Positions 1 through 10,205 of a stretch of DNA of 10,205 nt are shown here, in pieces. Made by a program: the position numbers and the translations under genes. How positions within the stretch are numbered: position 1 is the first letter of the stretch; each line of letters opens with the position of its first letter. Location of the stretch: IMG/VR virus record IMGVR_UViG_2917886563_000001; one strand, written 5' to 3'. The notes under the pieces were generated by a model that was given only the letters and a program-made list of their open reading frames with translations, made no database searches and was not told the origin of the DNA. Source of the stretch: a virus (Duplodnaviria; Heunggongvirae; Uroviricota; Caudoviricetes).

Positions 1-126
<126 letters not shown>

Positions 127-149
<23 letters not shown>

Positions 150-627
150 TTTAGTCCTTGCGGCATTACGTAAGCTCGGTGTGGCATCAAATGCCACGTT
201 AACTGATGTCGAACCGCAGTCTATGGAAGACGGCGTCAACGACCTTGAAATGATGATGGCTGAATGGCTTGGCGGTGATGCGTCACCTGGGACCAACGTT
301 GGCTACATTTTTGCTGATGCAGATGTCGCTCCGGATCCGGGCGATGAGCACGGTTTATCAAATAACGCTATCAATGCCGTCATTTTCAACCTTGCCTGCC
401 GCATTGCTCCGGATTATGCGCTGGAAGCGTCAGCAAAACTTATAACCACTGCCAGATACGGGAAAGAGCGACTCGTCAAACTGTCTGCAATGGACAGAGC
501 AAAAGCCGCTAAATGTAAGTCAGGTTATCCAAACCGTATGCCTGTTGGCAGTGGTAACCAGTTAGCGACGTGGAACGGTTGGAATTACTTCCACCGGAAG
601 GAACCTTGCGATAACGGGAGCGAATAA
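127..627 (+). CDS. Tail accessory factor, P22 gp4-like (head completion / portal-proximal adaptor)
   Basis: The 166-aa ORF has the same length as P22 gp4. Its N-terminus [47 protein letters not shown] closely matches my recollection of P22 gp4. The position, immediately upstream of a gp10-sized ORF, fits. The ATG overlaps the end of the upstream frame-3 ORF, and the stop TAA abuts the next ATG. Confidence 0.85.
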
Positions 628-2046
628 ATGCCGATTCAGCAACTTCCGCTTATGAAAGGTGTCGGCAAAGACTTTCGAAACGCTGACTATATCGACTATT
701 TGCCAGTGAATATGCTGGCTACACCCAAAGAAATCCTCAACAGCAGCGGATATCTTCGCTCATTCCCTGGCATTGCCAAACGCTCTGATGTGAACGGTGT
801 ATCTCGCGGCGTCGAGTACAACATGGCGCAGAATGCTGTTTATCGCGTGTGTGGTGGCAAGTTGTATAAGGGCGAAAGTGAAGTCGGCGATGTTGTCGGA
901 AGTGGTCGTGTATCAATGGCGCATGGTCGAACATCTCAGGCTGTAGGCGTTAATGGTCAACTGGTCGAGTCTCGCTATGATGGCACGGTTAAAACCGTCT
1001 CAAACTGGCCTACAGACAGCGGATTCACGCAGTATGAGTTAGGCTCAGTCCGCGACATTACACGCTTACGTGGGCGTTATGCGTGGTCAAAAGACGGCAC
1101 TGATTCATGGTTTATCACTGACCTTGAAGACGAATCACATCCTGACCGATACAGCGCACAATATCGTGCCGAGTCGCAGCCTGACGGCATCATCGGCATC
1201 GGAACATGGCGAGACTTCATCGTCTGCTTTGGCTCATCGACGATTGAATATTTCTCCCTGACGGGCGCAACCACTGTTGGTGCCGCTTTGTATGTCGCCC
1301 AGCCATCGTTGATGGTGCAGAAAGGAATCGCCGGAACCTACTGCAAAACGCCGTTTGCTGATTCGTATGCGTTCATCAGCAATCCGGCAACAGGTGCGCC
1401 GTCTGTTTACATCATCGGATCCGGTCAGGTGTCACCAATCGCCAGCGCGAGCATTGAGAAAATCCTCCGCTCCTACACTGCTGATGAACTGGCTGATGGC
1501 GTGATGGAATCGTTGCGCTTTGATGCTCATGAGTTGCTGATTATCCACCTTCCGCGCCATGTTCTCGTGTACGACGCATCTTCAAGCGCCAATGGTCCGC
1601 AATGGTGTGTGTTGAAAACTGGCTTGTATGACGATGTGTACCGCGCTATCGACTTCATTTACGAAGGTAATCAGATAACGTGCGGCGATAAGCTGGAATC
1701 TGTTACCGGAAAATTGCAATTCGACATCAGCAGCCAGTATGGGCTTCAACAGGAACACCTGCTGTTTACTCCACTCTTCAAAGCGGATAACGCCAGAGTG
1801 TTCGACCTTGAGGTTGAATCGTCAACTGGCGTTGCGCAGTACGCTGACCGCCTGTTCCTCTCTGCTACAACTGACGGCATCAATTACGGGCGTGAGCAGA
1901 TGATTGAGCAGAATGAACCGTTCGTTTACGACAAACGCGTTTTGTGGAAACGAGTAGGGCGCGTCAGGAAAAATATTGGCTTCAAACTGCGAGTTATCAC
2001 TAAGTCACCTGTCACTTTGTCTGGTTGCCAGGTAAGGATTGAGTAA
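628..2046 (+). CDS. Tail hub protein, P22 gp10-like
   Basis: The 472-aa ORF has the length and position of P22 gp10, between the gp4-like and gp26-like genes. An SD-like GGGAG lies 7 nt upstream of the ATG, which directly follows the TAA of the preceding gene. The assignment rests on synteny and length, not sequence recall. Confidence 0.75.
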
Positions 2047-2747
2047 TGGCTGATTCAAATCTCAACACCCCTGTTATTGTGCAGGCGACGCGGCTCGACA
2101 CGTCAATTCTTCCGCGCGACATCTTCTCTCAGTCATACCTGCTGTATGTTATCGCACAGGGTACAGACGTTGGTAACGTAGCAAACAAAGCTAACGAAGC
2201 AGGTCATGGAGCTTATGAAGCGCAGGTCAGGAATGAACAGCAGGACGATGAACTTGCAGACCATGAACTACGAATTAAACAACTGCGCATTGAAGTTGAT
2301 GGTCATGAAGTAAGAATTACCGGAAATACAGCGGCAATTGCTGATTTAGGAGTGAGAATAACCACAGTTGAAGGTGAAGTTCTCAACATTCAATCTGAAA
2401 TTTCATCTCTTGATGGAAGAGTGACATCTGTTGAAAACGATGTTGGTAATCTCAGTTTGGACTACGTTTCCAAGACTGAAGTAAGTCAACAATCACTATC
2501 ATCGCCTCTCAATGTGACAACATCATACTCAGTTGGAGGGGTAAAGGTGGTCGGTGCAAGGCAAAACGGTTGGACTGCCGGCACAGGAACCCCGCTAACA
2601 AGCGCGTTTACTGCAAATCAACCGTATCCTCTTTCAACAACCTACGTTCGGGCAGAAGTAGATGATATAGCCACTGGTTTGATTCAGGCTAGACAACGAA
2701 TACTTGCCCTTGAAAAAGCACTGCGAACACATGGTTTAATAAACTAA
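2046..2747 (+). CDS. Tail needle (cell-envelope-penetrating trimeric coiled-coil plug), P22 gp26-like
   Basis: The 233-aa ORF has the same length as P22 gp26. The N-terminus [43 protein letters not shown] and the C-terminus [13 protein letters not shown] closely match recalled P22 gp26 ([43 protein letters not shown] ... EDALRAHGLID). Heptad-like periodicity is visible in the central region. The start overlaps the upstream stop as TAATG, preceded by AAGGA. Confidence 0.9.
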
Positions 2748-3223
2748 TGGAAATAAAGCTCATCGATAATCCGGTGAAGCTTGCAGAATTCCTCAACAAT
2801 CCAGAAAACACGGGAAATATCGTAGACAGTGGAGATAAATACTACATCAAGCCTGATGCTGTATATCTCGGTATCTACGAAGGATTAGTGCTGGCTGGTG
2901 TTCATGAAGTGCGTAACTTCTGGCATAGCGTTGTGGAATGCCATGCGGTGTACGACCCCGGATTCCGTGGAGAATATGCACTACAAGGGCACCGATTATT
3001 CTGCAAATGGCTTCTCGAAAACTCACCATTCCTCAACAGCATCACCATGGTTCCTGATACCACAAAATACGGGCGGGCAATCATCCGTTTGCTCGGTGCT
3101 ACCCGTGTTGGTCACCTTGATGATGCATACACCAGTAATGGAAATCCTGTAGGCATCACGATTTATCAGTTACCGCGCTCAAAATATGAGGAACTAACGG
3201 ATGTTAATTTTTCAGATTGCTAA
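2747..3223 (+). CDS. P22 gp14-position protein (ejection-protein assembly / injection-associated); identity by synteny only
   Basis: The 158-aa ORF is translationally coupled to the needle gene through a TAATG overlap at 2745-2749. It occupies the slot of P22 gene 14, between gene 26 and gene 7. I do not recall the gp14 sequence well enough to confirm homology. Confidence 0.55.
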   Translation: MEIKLIDNPVKLAEFLNNPENTGNIVDSGDKYYIKPDAVYLGIYEGLVLAGVHEVRNFWHSVVECHAVYDPGFRGEYALQGHRLFCKWLLENSPFLNSITMVPDTTKYGRAIIRLLGATRVGHLDDAYTSNGNPVGITIYQLPRSKYEELTDVNFSDC

Positions 3224-3854
3224 TAAGTACCTCACCAAAGCTGTTTACTGCAAAGGTGGCAGTGATAGTGGAGCAAAAGCGAGTGCACGCGCAACGGAAA
3301 AAGGTATCGATCTACAGCGCGAAATGTGGCAAACGAACATGCAAAACCTTGCACCGTTCACGCCACTCGCTCAGCAGTATGTATCACAGTTGCAGAATCT
3401 TTCCTCACTTCAGGGGCAAGGGCAGGCACTTAACCAGTATTACAACTCCCAGCAGTACAAAGACCTGGCAGGTCAGGCGCGTTACCAGAGCCTGGCAGCA
3501 GCAGAGGCAACGGGTGGATTAGGCTCTACGGCAACCGGAAACCAGTTGGCAGCAATCGCACCTACACTCGGTCAAAACTGGCTGTCAGGTCAGATGAACA
3601 ACTACAACAATCTGGCAAACATTGGCCTTGGTGCTCTTACAGGTCAGGCAAACGCCGGACAGAACTATGCCAACAACGTCAGTCAATTGTATCAACAGCA
3701 GGCGGCAGCATCTGCGGCTAATGCAAATAAACCATCAGGATTTCAGAGCGCCCTTGGTGGAGCGGCGGCAGGTGCAGCTGCAGGTACTGCAATCATGCCT
3801 GGTTGGGGGACAGCAATTGGTGCTGGCGTAGGACTTCTTGGTTCACTGTTTTAA
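3201..3854 (+). CDS. Ejection (E) protein, P22 gp7-like
   Basis: The 217-aa ORF has an SD-like GAGGAA 7 nt upstream of ATG 3201 and overlaps the preceding gene by 23 nt. Its composition is Gln/Asn/Gly/Ala-rich low complexity with a C-terminal hydrophobic Gly/Ala-rich segment (GGAAAGAAAGTAIMPGWGTAIGAGVGLLGSLF). This, together with synteny, is typical of P22-family ejection protein gp7. Confidence 0.7.
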   Translation: MLIFQIANKYLTKAVYCKGGSDSGAKASARATEKGIDLQREMWQTNMQNLAPFTPLAQQYVSQLQNLSSLQGQGQALNQYYNSQQYKDLAGQARYQSLAAAEATGGLGSTATGNQLAAIAPTLGQNWLSGQMNNYNNLANIGLGALTGQANAGQNYANNVSQLYQQQAAASAANANKPSGFQSALGGAAAGAAAGTAIMPGWGTAIGAGVGLLGSLF

Positions 3855-3866
3855 TGGAGGTGTCTC

Positions 3867-5261
3867 TTGGCTACATGGCAACAGGTTGGTAATTCAGGCG
3901 CTCTTCTTGCCGGGTTGGGCGGCATGAACTCCAACGCTCCAGGAGCAAGTGATGCAGACGCCACGCTTGCATACATTCGACAGAATAACGAGATGGAGCG
4001 TTCAGGACGTAATAACGTTGGCTTGCGGGCTTTGCAGGGCATTTCATCTGTCATGGATATGTATAAGCAGATGGATCAGCAGAAGCGACAGCAAGAGTTT
4101 CAGCAGGCTTATGCTGATGCATATACATCTGGTGACCGCGATGCCATGCGAAAACTGGCATCACAGTATCCTGAGCAGTTCGACGTTGTAAGAAACGGCA
4201 TGAAATTTGTCGATGAAGACCAGCGTACTACTGTCGGTACACTGGCAGCAAGTGCCAGACTCGCAGGTTCATCTCCAGAAGCCATGATGTCATGGCTGCA
4301 GAACAACGCATCTGAGCTTTCTCGCGCCGGAGTAGACCCTCTGGATGTGGCGAAAATGTATCAGCAAAATCCACAAGGTTTCACAGAGTTTGTTGATCAC
4401 CTTGGAATGGCTGCACTTGGACCAGAACAATATTTTCAGGCACAAGACAGAATCGTTGGTCGTGAGATTGACCGTGGAAAACTTGCAGAGGCAATCCGCA
4501 GCAATCAGGCTGGCGAAGCACTAACTGCTCGTGGTCAGAACATCACTATGCGCGGTCAGGACTTATCTGCGTCTACTGCGCGACGCGGTCAGGATTTGGC
4601 AATGCAGCGAGCGTCAACAAGAGGAACCGCTGGGAATGATGAGCGTACAGTTCAGTTATCAGATGGCAGAACTGTAACGGTAGGCGGGAAGCTTCACGGC
4701 GCAGGGGCTAATGCGTTCTACGAAGGCATCGACAACGAGGGGAATATGGTTCGCGTTCCTGCCAGTTCAATCGCAGCGCCTGCAACATCGTCTGCATCAG
4801 CACAAAACTATGCCATGAAGAAGGATATCGACGCGATCGCAAATGCAGACGCTTCTGCTCTCGATTTTATGACAGGAATGACCGGCGGTGCAGGTAACCC
4901 GGCAATTGGTGCTGATGTTCGCAGCCGATTAACAGGAAAAGAGCAGCGTCAGTTATATAACTCAGCACAACGTATTCAGGGAAGAATGCAGAATCAGGGC
5001 GTGGCGGCAGCAAGGGACATGGGCGCCAGTGGTATTAACACCGTTGCAGAAGCGAAGATGTATTTTCAGGGGATGCCGCAGGTTGACTACTCAAGCCCGG
5101 AGGCTATGCAGCAGTCGATTCGTGAGATTCAGGAATACACCAACAATTACAACCAACAATATAACGTTAATGTTGGTAAATCTCAGCGGCAGCAATCTCA
5201 ACCTGCACAGGTATCACAGCCTGCAGCCAGCAGTAACTTTTCTTCACTATGGGGTGATTAA
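3867..5261 (+). CDS. Ejection (E) protein, P22 gp20-like; apparent TTG start
   Basis: The 464-aa ORF has no in-frame ATG near its 5' end. The first codon is TTG at 3867-3869, with GGAGG at 3856-3860 six nt upstream. Length and position match P22 gp20 (about 470 aa). Confidence 0.7.
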
Positions 5262-7564
5262 TGGCTAAAGCATGGAAAGATGTTATCGCCTCTCCACAGT
5301 ATCAGGCGTTAGCACCAGAACAAAAAGCGCAGGCTCAGGAGCAATACTTCAATGAAGTCGTGGCCCCGCAAGCCGGAGAAAATGCAGAGCAGGCTAAGCA
5401 AGCTTTCTATGCTGCCTATCCATTGCCATCTGTGCAGACAGAACAGCAGGAAGTAAGGCAATCTCCTGATGCCATTCAGCAAGACAAATCACTTATGCAG
5501 CGTGCAGGAGAATGGCTAACTGGTGGGCAAAGCGTAGGACAAATTGCCGAGCAGGCGGTAAGAGGATTTGTAAATATTCCTTTTGACGTTCTTCAGGGGG
5601 GGGCGAGTCTCATTAATGCTGCATCTCAGAGTTTTGATGGACCAAAGATTCTTGATGAAGTATATAGACCAGTTAACCGGCCAACGGATCCGTATGCGCA
5701 AGCTGGAGAGTCAATAGGCGGTTATCTTGTTCCTGGAGCAGGTGTAGCTGGAAACATGGTCATTGGTTCTCTCGCTGACGCGGCGAATCAACAGGGGGAT
5801 TTTGCCAAAAATACCGCTATTAATGCCGGACTTAACATTGCTACGCATGGCCTGATAAATGGCGTTACCCGTGGTGTTCGTGGCGCATCAAATATAATTA
5901 GTGGTAATAAAACATCTACACAGAGAGCGACCCCTGCGCCAACAGAAACATCACCATTCTCCGGTGATGCCACTGCAGCAACAAATCCTGCGGTTCATGC
6001 CGCAGAGGCAAGAGTAGCACAAGGTGTACCAATGACGCCTGCGACGAGCAACCCAGAGGAAGTCGTTCGCACAGTTGCTGCACAAAAAAGGCCAAATCTC
6101 GCTTCATCGCTTGATGAATTAGATATCAATCCTCAGGCTGAAGTTCTGGAGTCTGCTGAAAAGCTTAATGTTGATTCATTACTCCCTTCACACTTTTCCG
6201 GGAACGAGCAATACAAGGCTGTTGAGCAAGCAATCAAGTCCCGTGCGGGTTCTGCTCTACAGGTGCAGGAAAATGAAGCAATCAGGCAGCTAGCACAGAG
6301 CGCGGGGAAGATAATTGATCGCGCTTCCGGTGCAAAAGATGCTCTTGGTATGAGCGACAAGTTTATTGATACGGTCAATGGAAGAATGTCTGCCCTGATG
6401 AAACGAAGCGACCAGCTTTATCGCAATGTTGAAAAGGCGATGCCTGCAGGTGCAAAAATTGATGCGCCATCAACAAGGTCAATGCTCAAACAGGTGGCAG
6501 AAGATCTTGGCGGGATGAAAAACCTTGACCCTATTGAAAAGAGAGTCTTTCAGGCAGTTAATCCAGGCAAGAACGGCGCATTAACTTATGCAAATCTCAA
6601 TAAGCAACGACGACTTGTTGGTGATGCACTTCATAAGAATTCTGGACCATATAAAGATGCTGATCGCGCTGCCTTATCGAGGCTTTACGGTTCGCTCGCC
6701 GATGATCAAAAGACGGCGCTGTCAGGGACAATTGCATTACGTGATTTTGAAGTTGCTCAGAGGCTTGTTCAGATGCGAAAAAGTATGGAAGAGCAAATGA
6801 TTAATCTTACTGGCAGAACGCTGAACGGTGATGTTTCTCGCAAAGCAACGACAGCACTACAGGCAATGTCGAAAGGCGATGCCAAAGGATTCCGTGAATT
6901 GATGCAAAACACGCCGTCCAGGAAGCTAAGAACCGAGCTACTGGGAACAGGTCTTCGGGATATGCTTTCGAACGGAAAACGTGGTGCTGATTTTAATCCT
7001 GCAGGGTTTGCTGACTGGTATCAAAACATGTTAGCAAACGGACAAATGCGAAATCTTGCCCGACATTTACCAAAAGAGACTATGTCAGGTCTGAACGATG
7101 TATATAAGGTCGCAAAGGCTATCAAAGACGCAAAATCTTACGAGATAACCACAGGAAGACTAAACGAGTTCGTCAAACGGTTTAATCGTGTCACTGTGGC
7201 AAATGAATTTGTTGCTAACCATGCCCAACGCATTGGCACTGCGGTTGGTTCAACGGTGTCAGGACCGTTCAGTGCAGTAGGTGCTGTTGCTGGGTCAGAA
7301 ATTGGGGCAAAAGTCGCCAGCAAAATCAGGGCGATGGGCGGCGCTGCATCAATGGAATCTGCAGAAAAGCTAATTAGCTCACCAGAATTCCAGAAAGCAG
7401 CAAGGCTGGCAGTAAAACAAGCACCAGAAAGCATCGTTGATACAACTGTAAGACGCTCTTCTGCTTGGCGCTCGTTTTACAACTCACTTCCAGAATCAGA
7501 TAAGAAAACCATATCAAGGCTAGGCATCATGTACTGGATGAACAGTGATGACAACCAGAAGTAA
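5261..7564 (+). CDS. Ejection (E) protein, P22 gp16-like (larger than the P22 prototype)
   Basis: The 767-aa ORF is coupled to the preceding gene by a TAATG overlap at 5259-5263. It is largely Ala/Gln/Lys-rich and apparently helical, and it is the last gene of the ejection-protein block before the mnt/tailspike region, as in P22. Confidence 0.7.
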
Positions 7565-7581
7565 CGGAAAGCCACGGATGG

Positions 7582-7845
7582 TTAGTTGCAGTCTTTTTTA
7601 TATAAATCTCTGAGCGTATCAAAGACAATTTTCTTTACCATATCGGATTGTTGGTCTGCAATACGCTCAGCATCGTCATTGTAAAAAGATGCAGTGCTTT
7701 GTTTAGCCAGTGATTCTTCAATCGCTGCAATTATCTCTGAGTTCAGTGACCTGTTATTCATCTTCGCACGCTGCTTAATTTTGGTGTGGAGTTCATGCGC
7801 AAGTCTCAAATGAAACTGCGCTTCGTCGTATTTGCTGTACATCAT
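7582..7845 (-). CDS. mnt: Mnt-like ribbon-helix-helix (Arc/MetJ family) repressor
   Basis: The translation MMYSKYDEAQFHLRLAHELHTKIKQRAKMNNRSLNSEIIAAIEESLAKQSTASFYNDDAERIADQQSDMVKKIVFDTLRDLYKK aligns along its full length with recalled P22 Mnt (FNFRMPMEVREKLKFRAEANGRSMNSELLQIVQDALSK...NDAERLADEQSELVKKMVFDTLKDLYKK). I favour the start at the Met pair at 7845/7842 because GGTGAGG lies 5 nt upstream on the minus strand. The ORF track's longer form, starting at 7875, has no SD and adds 10 residues absent from P22 Mnt. Confidence 0.85.
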   Translation of the reverse strand: MMYSKYDEAQFHLRLAHELHTKIKQRAKMNNRSLNSEIIAAIEESLAKQSTASFYNDDAERIADQQSDMVKKIVFDTLRDLYKKDCN

Positions 7846-7963
7846 TGATGCCTCACCAGTTGGGTGGAACGGCATCGTAACCTACTGGATAAATACTCAA
7901 TAGTACCATTTAGGTATTCAATAATATCAAAATTGAATCATATCCTTCCTCTGGAGTTACAAA
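7846..7963. promoter_or_regulatory. Divergent intergenic control region between mnt (-) and tailspike (+); candidate Pmnt and operator
   Basis: This 118-bp AT-rich spacer separates divergent start codons. It contains short dyads: AATAC...GTATT (7892-7918) and TTCAAT-9nt-ATTGAA (7917-7937). The tailspike SD, GGAG, is at 7953-7956. No strong sigma70 consensus could be pinned down by eye. In P22 the Mnt operator overlaps Pant, but the operator sequence here is not the P22 one. Confidence 0.35.
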
Positions 7964-9889
7964 ATGTCAGATATCGCCGCAAATGTTGTGGTAAGCATGC
8001 CTAGCCAATTGTTCACTATGGCTCGTTCTTTTAAAACTGTATCAAATGGCAAAATCTTTATTGGTAAAATAGATGAAGACCCAGTAAATCCTGAAAACCA
8101 GATTCAGGTTTATATTGAGAATGAAGACGGATCTTACGTTCCTGTTGCGCAGCCTATCGTGATAAATACCGCTGGATATCCGGTATACAACGGACAAATT
8201 GCGAAGTTCGTAACTGTGCAAGGCCATTCTATGGCTGTGTACGATGCGTATGGGGTACAACAGTTTTATTTTCCGAATGTGCTTAAATACGACCCGGACC
8301 AATTTAAAGGTCAATTGCTAAGCGATAATCACTCTCTTGGTGATTCATTAGTTATGCACAATCCACAATTCACCGGGTCAACATCACTCCCTTTAGCCAA
8401 TAAATTGACTGTTGATGTGCGAACATTATCAGATTATGGATTTAAGGCTGATAACAGCGGAGCACAAAACAAGGCTGCATTCCAGAAAGCCATTGATGAT
8501 GCTACGTTGCCAACGGAGATTGTTATCCCTGAAGGGACGTTCATTATTGACCCTGGTATAACGATTAAAAATATTGTCACCATGATACGAGGTGCTGGCG
8601 CATATCAGTCCAGAATCTTCTCTACTGGAACAAACGAACCAATCATAACCCAGCAAAGCGACCCAATTACTTTCTGTGAGCTTAGAGACTTTGGCTTAGA
8701 TGGTAATAATTACTCAGCTAATGGGATAAATTTTCCTAACGCCAACCATATCAAAATTGAAAATGTAGATGTAACCGGCACTACAAGTAACGCTATCTTA
8801 ATTAATGGTTACTCAATAGATATAATTGGCTGCCGTTTGCTAACAAACACAGGAAATGCGCTTAACATTGGTGGGGTATGTAATAATCTTAACATCATCA
8901 ATAACCGTATTTATGGTAATGGTGCTGGAGGCATCTTGCTTACTCCGGCGTATGCCGAGGGCGGTATGAGCGTCCGTGTAAACGGAAATGATATTGAGCA
9001 AAATAAGTTATACGGGTTTATGTCATTCGGGGTTAAGGGACTTAATTTGGATGATAACTATTGGGAGCGTAACGGCGAAAGTGGATATCCATATGGTACT
9101 CCGGAATTTATAAACATTAAAGCCGATATTCATCTCATTGCTAATGAGTTTACATTAATACCTGACGTAACAAAGATTAATGATACAGTTTCGATTCGAG
9201 GAAACCAGCAAACTGCAATCGGTTACGCCAGTTCCCTCCCTAATCAGGATGGTTTTATATTCACAAACTATGCTAAAAACCTGACAATCGAAAATAATCA
9301 ATTATTGGATGCATCTAAAGTAAACAATTTATTGGTAATGTACCGTAATAATCTTTCGTCTAAAGTTACAGATAGATTGTATCTGGCTAACAATACGGTC
9401 AATTCGATAGGGTATGTTGGAAGTTATGATCCAGCGACACAAAACCCTGATACTGCTCATTTAATAGATATTGCGAACAGAGAGTTAACTGCTAACTATC
9501 TTGATCGAAATATGTTGCTTTGGAACGCGGCATCTGGAACGACAGGAGCATTGATAAAAACTCAAAACATTTATGCTGGTAATTATTCATTCTTAGTTAC
9601 GGCAGGAGATAGAGTTTGGGGACGAACGATAGACCTCAACAAATCACCAGAACTAAAAGGGAAATTTGTATGGTTTGGTGCGTGGGTAAATGACCAGGGA
9701 GCAGCGTCAAAACTTATGTTTATAGTTAATGGTGCAGGACAAACAGACTCTACAGCACCTTTAGCTGGGAATGGGAAATGGCGCTATGTTAGTTGTGGTG
9801 TGTATATAGACGCAACGGCTACAGCTATAAATGTTGGCATAAGAAATTATGGTTCAGGAAATGTACTCATAAACTCACCGTTGATGTAG
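7964..9889 (+). CDS. Tailspike protein: P22-family head-binding N-terminal domain plus divergent right-handed beta-helix receptor-binding domain (probable O-antigen or capsule depolymerase)
   Basis: Residues 1-114 ([57 protein letters not shown]...[15 protein letters not shown]...[10 protein letters not shown]) match the recalled P22 gp9 N-terminus and resemble Sf6/HK620-type N-termini. The rest is rich in Asn/Gly/Ile beta-helix rungs (e.g. [29 protein letters not shown]) and does not resemble the P22 endorhamnosidase body. Confidence 0.9.
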
Positions 9890-10205
9890 CCCCCAGAAAC
9901 ACCGGACAGTAGCTGTATCTCCAGATAAGAGATAGGCTTGAATATATGTCTAACACTAACGCCAATTTTGAGATGACCGGGATCCTGTTAGGGCAAGAAG
10001 TCCGTAAACGTAAAACTCCTCAGGAGAAAATCGCCATTATCCAGCAGACGATGGAGCCGGGTATGAATGTCTCCCATGTCGCCCGCCTGCATGGTATCCA
10101 GCCCAGCCTGCTGTTTAAATGGAAGAAGCATATCAGGAAGGCAGCCTCACCGCCGTTGCGGCCGGAGAGGAATGTCGTTCCTGCTTCTGAGCTTACAGCT
10201 GCTCT
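9886..10205 (+). mobile_element. Left end of an IS3-family (IS2-group) insertion sequence, truncated by the window edge
   Basis: The orfA-like ORF begins at 9946. The sequence just after the tailspike stop (TAGCCCCCAGAAACACC...ATCTCCAGA) resembles the recalled IS2 left terminus (..GGCCCCCTGAATCTCCAGACAACC..). The exact boundary is uncertain to within about 10 bp. Confidence 0.55.
9946..10205 (+). CDS. IS3-family (IS2-like) transposase OrfA, HTH DNA-binding subunit; 3' end outside window
   Basis: The translation MSNTNANFEMTGILLGQEVRKRKTPQEKIAIIQQTMEPGMNVSHVARLHGIQPSLLFKWKK...VVPASELTAA resembles recalled IS2 InsC (..[69 protein letters not shown]..). The ORF is absent from the supplied ORF track only because it has no stop inside the window. 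Confidence 0.75.
   Translation, partial: MSNTNANFEMTGILLGQEVRKRKTPQEKIAIIQQTMEPGMNVSHVARLHGIQPSLLFKWKKHIRKAASPPLRPERNVVPASELTAA

Follow-up and report, generated by a model that had tools for sequence, protein, structure and literature searches.

The tailspike gene of a P22-like prophage of the environmental strain Escherichia sp. E4736 is interrupted in its 3' part by an ISEcl1-like insertion sequence (IS), which we are highly confident has transposed between positions 9881 and 9882 of the DNA stretch analysed here (10,205 nt, referred to as the window). The alignments with IS-free alleles place the element within the coding sequence, with the native stop codon 68 codons (about 10% of the protein) further downstream. 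The window corresponds to the entire contig PDHX01000034.1 of assembly GCA_004745245.1, and the contig end falls inside the IS. We thus infer a simple insertion from the left junction; the right end of the element, its target duplication and the distal fragment of the gene would lie past the contig end.

The prophage region and its tailspike gene

Judging by its gene content, the window is the late-operon end of a P22-like prophage. Pfam domains occur in the order gp4 tail accessory factor, gp10 stabilisation protein, DUF2824, and the gp7 and gp20 ejection proteins, and an Mnt/Arc-type repressor is encoded on the minus strand after the gp20 gene. The gp20 gene and the repressor are separated by a gp16-like ORF. 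This ORF gave no match in the Pfam scan that we ran, and the precomputed annotation of its 602-aa call is PF26808. For the 767-aa ORF at 5261-7564, other pipelines place the start at 5756, and an exact protein look-up found no record. The gene order gp16-like, Mnt-like repressor, tailspike is shared with P22-like phages.

The tailspike-like ORF extends from 7964 to 9889 on the plus strand, with its TAG stop codon at 9887-9889, and the 641-aa product is found in the protein records as WP_240731156.1 of Escherichia sp. E4736. According to the ORF list, the Pfam matches and the allele of the sister strain Escherichia sp. E4694 described below, the native part of the gene covers 7964-9881, which is codons 1-639 and the first base of codon 640. 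This part encodes an N-terminal head-binding domain, a right-handed beta-helix and a beta-sandwich. Pfam detects the first two of these as PF09008 (Head_binding, E = 3.8e-64) and PF13229 (Beta_helix). In a sequence search the protein matched the solved Sf6 and P22 tailspike structures, and a fold search with the AlphaFold model of a 707-aa homologue returned the tailspikes of Sf6, P22 and CBA120; the fold searches confirmed the general tailspike architecture and nothing beyond it. The protein thus combines the head-binding domain and the right-handed beta-helix receptor-binding domain that characterise P22-like tailspikes (gp9/gp14 type), and it lacks 68 residues of the complete C-terminus that is typical of this family. 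The alignment with P22 gp9 is restricted to residues 1-115, with no sequence kinship in the receptor-binding part, and that with Sf6 gp14 to residues 1-256.

When the window is compared with the Logan contig L009, which carries an IS-free allele of the gene, 48 of the 49 differences in the tailspike are located at 7976-8266, which is the head-binding domain. By its position, this cluster is the usual mosaic joint between the adaptor and the receptor-binding parts. A scan of 7500-10205 for promoters and terminators yielded none above the shuffled expectation.

The left terminus of the IS and the hybrid end of the reading frame

Two independent lines of evidence agree that the first base of the IS is 9882 (TGATGTAGCCCCC...). 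The first comes from other copies of the element. We aligned 17 full copies that occupy 16 independent sites (among them the ydjK region, csgB, dsdA, plasmid backbones and ISEcp1) with no relation between their flanks, and the sequence common to them begins only at TGATGTAGCCCCC / TGATGTAG..., the equivalent of position 9882 in the window. The second line comes from two alleles that do not carry the IS. Contig L009 is the same as the window from 8267 to 9881 except for one base and diverges at 9882, reading CTCTTTGTG... past position 9881 where the window reads TGATGTAG... The IS-free prophage of strain E4694 is colinear with the window over 16-9881 (98.1% identity), and its alignment stops exactly at 9881.

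The left end starts with the family-typical TG at 9882-9883. When aligned to the reverse-complemented right end of a full copy, the left terminal inverted repeat matches best over 9882-9909 on the plus strand (TGATGTAGCCCCCAGAAACACCGGACAG), and the imperfect match reaches about 45 nt. The full copies end in ...GATCA and their two ends align as imperfect inverted repeats, so the element has the TG...CA termini of the IS3 family, the right end being read from the full copies.

The IS is inserted in the same orientation as the tailspike gene, and the last codons of the ORF are a phage-IS hybrid (9881-9889, plus strand). As judged from the IS-free alleles, which read TCT CTT TGT (Ser-Leu-Cys...) at this place, codon 640 is a Leu codon (T|TG, the first base from the phage and two from the IS) instead of the native Ser (TCT), and it is followed by Met (ATG) and the TAG stop. 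With the IS starting at 9882, everything after the first base of the Leu codon, including the Met codon and the TAG, is derived from the IS. Bases 3-8 of the element make up the Met codon and the stop, the TAG being bases 6-8 in every copy. The tailspike of the window consequently finishes ...NSP, L (hybrid), M, stop, with its last two residues encoded by the IS.

The junction is reproducible, since it is present in two assemblies: a contig of GCA_005781225.1 is identical to window positions 5417-9901 and ends 20 nt into the IS. Both assemblies break within the IS, as is typical of short-read assemblies at repeats. Exact-pattern scans of genome and viral contigs for this left junction, with a pattern extending 22 nt into the IS and so 2 nt beyond the end of the second contig, gave no match, and neither did a scan of genome contigs for the empty site.

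Identity of the element

The 324 nt at 9882-10205 (plus strand) are the left part of an ISEcl1-like IS of the IS3 family, IS2 group. Matches to IS3-family elements, at 97.8-97.9% identity, were obtained from 152 records of E. coli and from 1,641 of plasmids (E = 4e-157 in the plasmid search), the plasmid matches being mostly from Klebsiella, Enterobacter, Escherichia, Citrobacter and Salmonella. No copy with at least 99% identity over the 324-nt fragment was found in the searches of E. coli and plasmid records. Compared with the full copies aligned, the window sequence has four substitutions and two compensating indels. By the ISfinder convention, copies that are at least 95% identical to a named element in nucleotide sequence count as its isoforms. 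The fragment falls within this range when compared with the 1336-bp copies, to which it is 97.8% identical over the 324 comparable nucleotides. The depositor of one such copy labelled it ISEcl1 and named the matching genes “ISEcl1tnpA” and “ISEcl1like”. The window copy has the same TG terminus, inverted repeat and orfA as ISEcl1, of which only the left quarter is present in the window. The full copies carry orfA and orfB with a programmed frameshift annotated by NCBI, and their length of 1336 bp agrees with that of ISEcl1 (PMC8805313). In PMC10425158, ISEcl1 is listed as a member of the IS3 family, IS2 group, and accession AF342826 is cited for it; the element was originally described from Enterobacter cloacae.

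The 5' part of orfA is located at 9946-10205 on the plus strand and encodes a helix-turn-helix DNA-binding protein that forms the N-terminal portion of the OrfAB transposase. Translated from the ATG at 9946, its 86 codons match PF01527 (HTH_Tnp_1, E = 4.7e-13, 9946-10203), which is the helix-turn-helix DNA-binding domain expected of an IS3-family OrfA. One depositor starts orfA at this ATG, and the NCBI annotation of related copies uses the next in-frame ATG, equivalent to window position 9973. The later start appears more likely to us. The orfA fragment of the window aligned with the NCBIfam model “IS2 repressor TnpA” from residue 14 (72 bits, under the cut-off).

In the full copies, OrfB has rve and rve_3 domains and passes the cut-off of NCBIfam transpos_IS3 (199 versus 160 bits). 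Their best NCBIfam matches are “IS2 repressor TnpA” and “IS2 transposase TnpB”, and yet the scores of a full copy miss the cut-offs of these IS2-specific models (201 versus 229 bits for TnpA, 416 versus 597 for TnpB). The ISEcl1-like orfA has about 72% nucleotide identity to a sequence annotated as IS2 InsA. With this identity and with scores under the curated TnpA and TnpB cut-offs, the element is not IS2 itself. A DNA search of the phage collection with the IS end gave weak IS2-type matches only, and the IS2 match in phage BP9 is a fragment. The ISEcl1-like IS shares with IS2 of E. coli the group and the two-ORF layout, and the same copy-out/paste-in chemistry would be expected of it.

A preliminary description of this DNA had proposed an IS3-family, IS2-like element after the tailspike, which was right at the level of the group, as the identity to ISEcl1-like copies and the HTH_Tnp_1 domain demonstrate. 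It had placed orfA 57 nt after the tailspike stop, and the in-frame ATG at 9946 does lie 57 nt beyond the final base of that stop. Its suggestion that the IS terminus would lie within 9882-9886, overlap the end of the tailspike ORF and supply the last codons and the stop is borne out by the 17 full copies and the IS-free alleles, with base 9882 as the terminus and with the hybrid Leu, the Met and the TAG coming from the IS.

The two indels are both located in orfA and delimit an out-of-frame patch of 15 codons at 10129-10173 (plus strand), in which HIRKAASPPLRPERN replaces 15 residues. According to pairwise alignments with two full copies and the translations, the window copy lacks one nucleotide between 10129 and 10130 and has an additional T at 10173; together these indels shift 15 codons and then restore the frame. 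Both are no more than 77 nt away from the contig end and may therefore stem from an assembly error; if they are real, they would alter the region just after the helix-turn-helix.

The lost C-terminal tail

The extent of the truncation was determined by comparison with IS-free homologues. The E4694 tailspike (WP_135490994.1) is identical to that of the window over all 639 native residues and continues for 68 more, to a total of 707 aa; at the nucleotide level, the two genes differ in 2 of 1918 nt. Tailspikes of E. coli O26-type prophages (86% identical) have 707 aa as well, and the tailspike of phage N7 (61% identical) has 709 aa. The full-length relatives returned by the protein search are either 707 aa long or 719-873 aa with other N-terminal adaptors, and the shorter relatives returned are partial, contig-truncated entries. 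Among the full-length relatives returned, only the E4736 tailspike ends near residue 641. By comparison with the E4694 allele and the homologues, the IS removes 68 residues from the reading frame.

The preliminary description had seen the IS as lying flush against the tailspike stop codon and had considered that, with the last codon or two supplied by the IS, the original C-terminus might have been clipped. The clipping did take place, although its extent was underestimated, 68 residues being lost by comparison with the E4694 allele; and the position has to be corrected, since the native stop is absent from this place and the element lies inside the gene. In the alignment of the 3' end with IS-free homologues, which had been put forward as a check, no homologue ends in ...NSPLM, and all full-length ones run on as ...NSPSLC... 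for 68 residues and keep the tail.

The mean identity of the lost tail is 63% over residues 640-707 and 71% over 665-707, which equals the level of the beta-helix, and the tail is kept in homologues that are as little as 44-56% identical overall and have different N-terminal adaptors. Conservation as high as that of the catalytic beta-helix across divergent homologues argues that the tail is needed. In the monomer AlphaFold model of a 707-aa homologue, the insertion point is near the end of the last beta-sandwich strand (residues 634-643), and residues 646-707 are modelled with low confidence (pLDDT below 50). In P22, C-terminal parts of the gp9 tailspike are needed for trimer formation, and particles without tailspikes (gene 9) are non-infectious. 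From the conservation of the tail and from what is known of P22 gp9, we conclude with moderate confidence that the 641-aa product, which lacks the conserved C-terminal module, probably cannot form a working tailspike. If the tailspike is non-functional, particles of the E4736 prophage would be non-infectious, like those of P22 without tailspikes.

Target duplications and the far side of the IS

Elements of the IS3 family produce OrfAB by -1 frameshifting, are copied out as a circle and are pasted in at staggered cuts. By the same route, the OrfAB transposase of the ISEcl1-like element would have been made by -1 frameshifting, and the IS would have been copied out as a circle and integrated into the tailspike gene at staggered cuts.

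The direct repeats abutting the termini were determined at the 16 independent insertion sites of ISEcl1-like copies. They have a length of 15 bp at seven sites, 16 bp at seven and 5 bp at one, and one site has none. IS2 makes 5-bp target duplications. The IS2 group as a whole is listed with this length (PMC10425158, table 8), a feature that is typical of the group and not strictly defining. The ISEcl1-like copies differ from IS2 in this respect, with 15-16 bp at 14 of the 16 sites. The two classes of duplication (15-16 versus 5 bp) differ by about one helical turn. In the searchable literature, we found no mention of ISEcl1 or the IS2 group duplicating 15-16 bp of target. Even so, it is rather doubtful that this stagger is both a real property of ISEcl1-type elements and one that is missing from existing records such as ISfinder. 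Should it be undocumented, it would indicate that target capture can differ in geometry between members of the IS3 family. ISEcl1 occurs very commonly on resistance plasmids of Klebsiella and Enterobacter, and tracing insertions by 5-bp repeats would miss such duplications.

On the basis of the 15-16 bp repeats of the other copies, integration in the window most likely duplicated 15-16 bp of target sequence (9866/9867-9881), and the predicted target is (C)TCATAAACTCACCGT at 9866-9881. If the window copy behaves like most others, tailspike codons 635-639 are predicted to be repeated past the IS. The distal part of the gene, some 68 codons in addition to the duplicated bases, would then be found beyond the approximately 1.3-kb IS, probably followed by gtr-type genes and an integrase. 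A simple insertion predicts a right junction of the form ...GGGTCAAGATCA + (C)TCATAAACTCACCGT + CTCTTTGTGTATATGG..., or ...GGAGGGTCAAGATCA, then (C)TCATAAACTCACCGT, then CTCTTTGTGTATATGGAATGCC. Read-through that starts in the late operon of the phage would run on into the IS.

The expected content of the far side can be read from IS-free relatives. In both cryptic-Escherichia relatives (L009 and the E4694 prophage), the tailspike gene is followed by a gtrC-like gene of 506 aa on the opposite strand, gtrB, gtrA and an integrase gene, which agrees with the earlier expectation of gtr-type genes after the tailspike. Beyond the integrase, both continue with the chromosomal genes for a formate/nitrite-transporter-family protein, mlaA and a fadL-like gene. 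In E. coli homologues, an acyltransferase gene, intS and tRNA-Arg follow the tailspike instead. A protein search with the 72 C-terminal residues returned one cluster of E. coli contig-end partials only, and a search with the gtrC-like protein of an IS-free relative led to a 98%-identical representative on an unrelated assembly (GCA_902828135.1).

Alternative explanations

Three other explanations of the junction were weighed against a simple insertion. The ORF is unbroken from 7964 to 9889, and RefSeq lists its product (WP_240731156.1) as an ordinary “phage tailspike protein”, as would be the case if the protein were naturally 641 aa long and the IS had landed just after the native stop or overlapped it by a base or two. 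This is refuted by the two IS-free alleles (L009 and E4694), which diverge from the window exactly at the IS terminus; the allele that is identical over 639 aa has 68 more residues, the tail is conserved in all full-length homologues, and the TAG belongs to the IS in every copy. The probability that we leave to a natural 641-aa protein is close to nil. A hybrid end would also arise if the assembly had wrongly joined a phage contig to a repeated IS, and both the location of the IS part at the very end of a short-read contig and the two indels that are absent from the full copies aligned are of the kind that an assembly artefact could leave. However, phage DNA gives way to the IS precisely at the element's first base, where a random misjoin would not land. 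The phage sequence also breaks off at the very position from which the IS-free alleles differ, and the second assembly has the same junction. We thus consider an artefact very improbable.

The main surviving rival is that the insertion was followed by an IS-mediated deletion or inversion, by which the 3' end of the tailspike gene, and perhaps the gtr genes and the integrase, would be gone or moved. Pattern scans of genome contigs and protein searches with the C-terminal fragment and the gtrC-like protein did not find the right junction, and the one ISEcl1-like site without a target duplication (out of 16) indicates that rearrangements occur at such copies. Against this, the other 15 sites are simple insertions with intact duplications, and the missing junction is accounted for by the fact that the E4736 genome is outside the scanned collection. 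A later rearrangement is unlikely on this evidence, though clearly less so than an artefact, and simple insertion into the tailspike gene is the explanation that we prefer.

Significance and comparison with known systems

The RefSeq entry WP_240731156.1 represents a 707-aa protein cut short by an IS that supplies the stop, and it is not to be taken for a naturally short form of the tailspike. The E4736 prophage probably cannot make adsorbing particles, and we regard it as a routine case of prophage erosion by an IS. The long target duplication of ISEcl1-like copies is the one feature that is mildly out of the ordinary, and it lies outside the tailspike finding. The insertion itself is an ordinary gene disruption, which is known biology and not a new kind of system. 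It resembles other IS insertions that inactivate prophage genes in that an IS disrupts a structural gene of a resident prophage, and it is distinguished from the usual insertions of prophage decay only by the fact that an annotation pipeline took the IS-terminated ORF to encode an intact protein.

Prophage genes and assembly context

From end to end, the window corresponds to a single contig of a short-read assembly (PDHX01000034.1, assembly GCA_004745245.1), which terminates within the ISEcl1-like element at 9882-10205; a second assembly, GCA_005781225.1, divides the same region between two contigs. The tailspike ORF that the IS terminates (WP_240731156.1) is listed in RefSeq as a normal protein and not as a pseudogene.

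The tailspike was compared with the IS-free allele of L009, a Logan contig from a cryptic Escherichia relative. Of the 49 nucleotide differences, 48 lie in the head-binding domain (7976-8266), and only one is found across the remaining 1615 nt (8267-9881). This distribution marks a recombination joint where the conserved adaptor meets the receptor-binding part of the tailspike.

The gp16-like ORF (5261-7564) encodes 767 aa if read from the ATG at 5261, while other pipelines place the start at 5756 (602 aa). Its counterpart in L009 has 911 aa with an extra SLT lytic-transglycosylase domain, so the ejection-protein gene varies among these prophages. The gp16-like gene is separated from the tailspike by just one gene, which encodes a Mnt/Arc-type repressor (7582-7875, minus strand). 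This region contains no antirepressor gene, whereas one is present in both phage N7 and P22.

The IS copy in the window

The left end of standard ISEcl1-like copies, TGATGTAGCCCCCTGA, contains stops in all three incoming frames within 16 nt, so that an interrupted gene in the same orientation gains at most 5 codons. In the window copy (left end 9882-9897, CCCCCAGAA), A replaces T at position 9895, and the third-frame TGA is therefore lost.

The orfA of this copy lacks one base between 10129 and 10130 and has an additional T at 10173. These two indels compensate each other and leave 15 codons out of frame (10129-10173), a patch that reads HIRKAASPPLRPERN in place of 15 residues of the usual frame. 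Base-by-base alignment with two full copies, L001 and L004, found both to be without these indels, and every database copy stayed below 99% identity to the window IS sequence. Lying close to the contig end, the indels could be either real mutations or assembly errors.

Target duplications

Target duplications were counted at the full ISEcl1-like copies (loci L001-L004, L012-L015, L020 and L022-L029). They measured 15 bp at seven sites and 16 bp at another seven; one site, inside ISEcp1, had a 5-bp duplication, and one site had none. For the window copy, a duplication of 9866/9867-9881 is accordingly predicted. We found no mention of 15-16-bp repeats of ISEcl1-like elements in the literature searched. 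The duplication listed for the IS2 group is 5 bp, in contrast to the mostly 15-16 bp of ISEcl1-like copies, and the two size classes are separated by approximately one helical turn.
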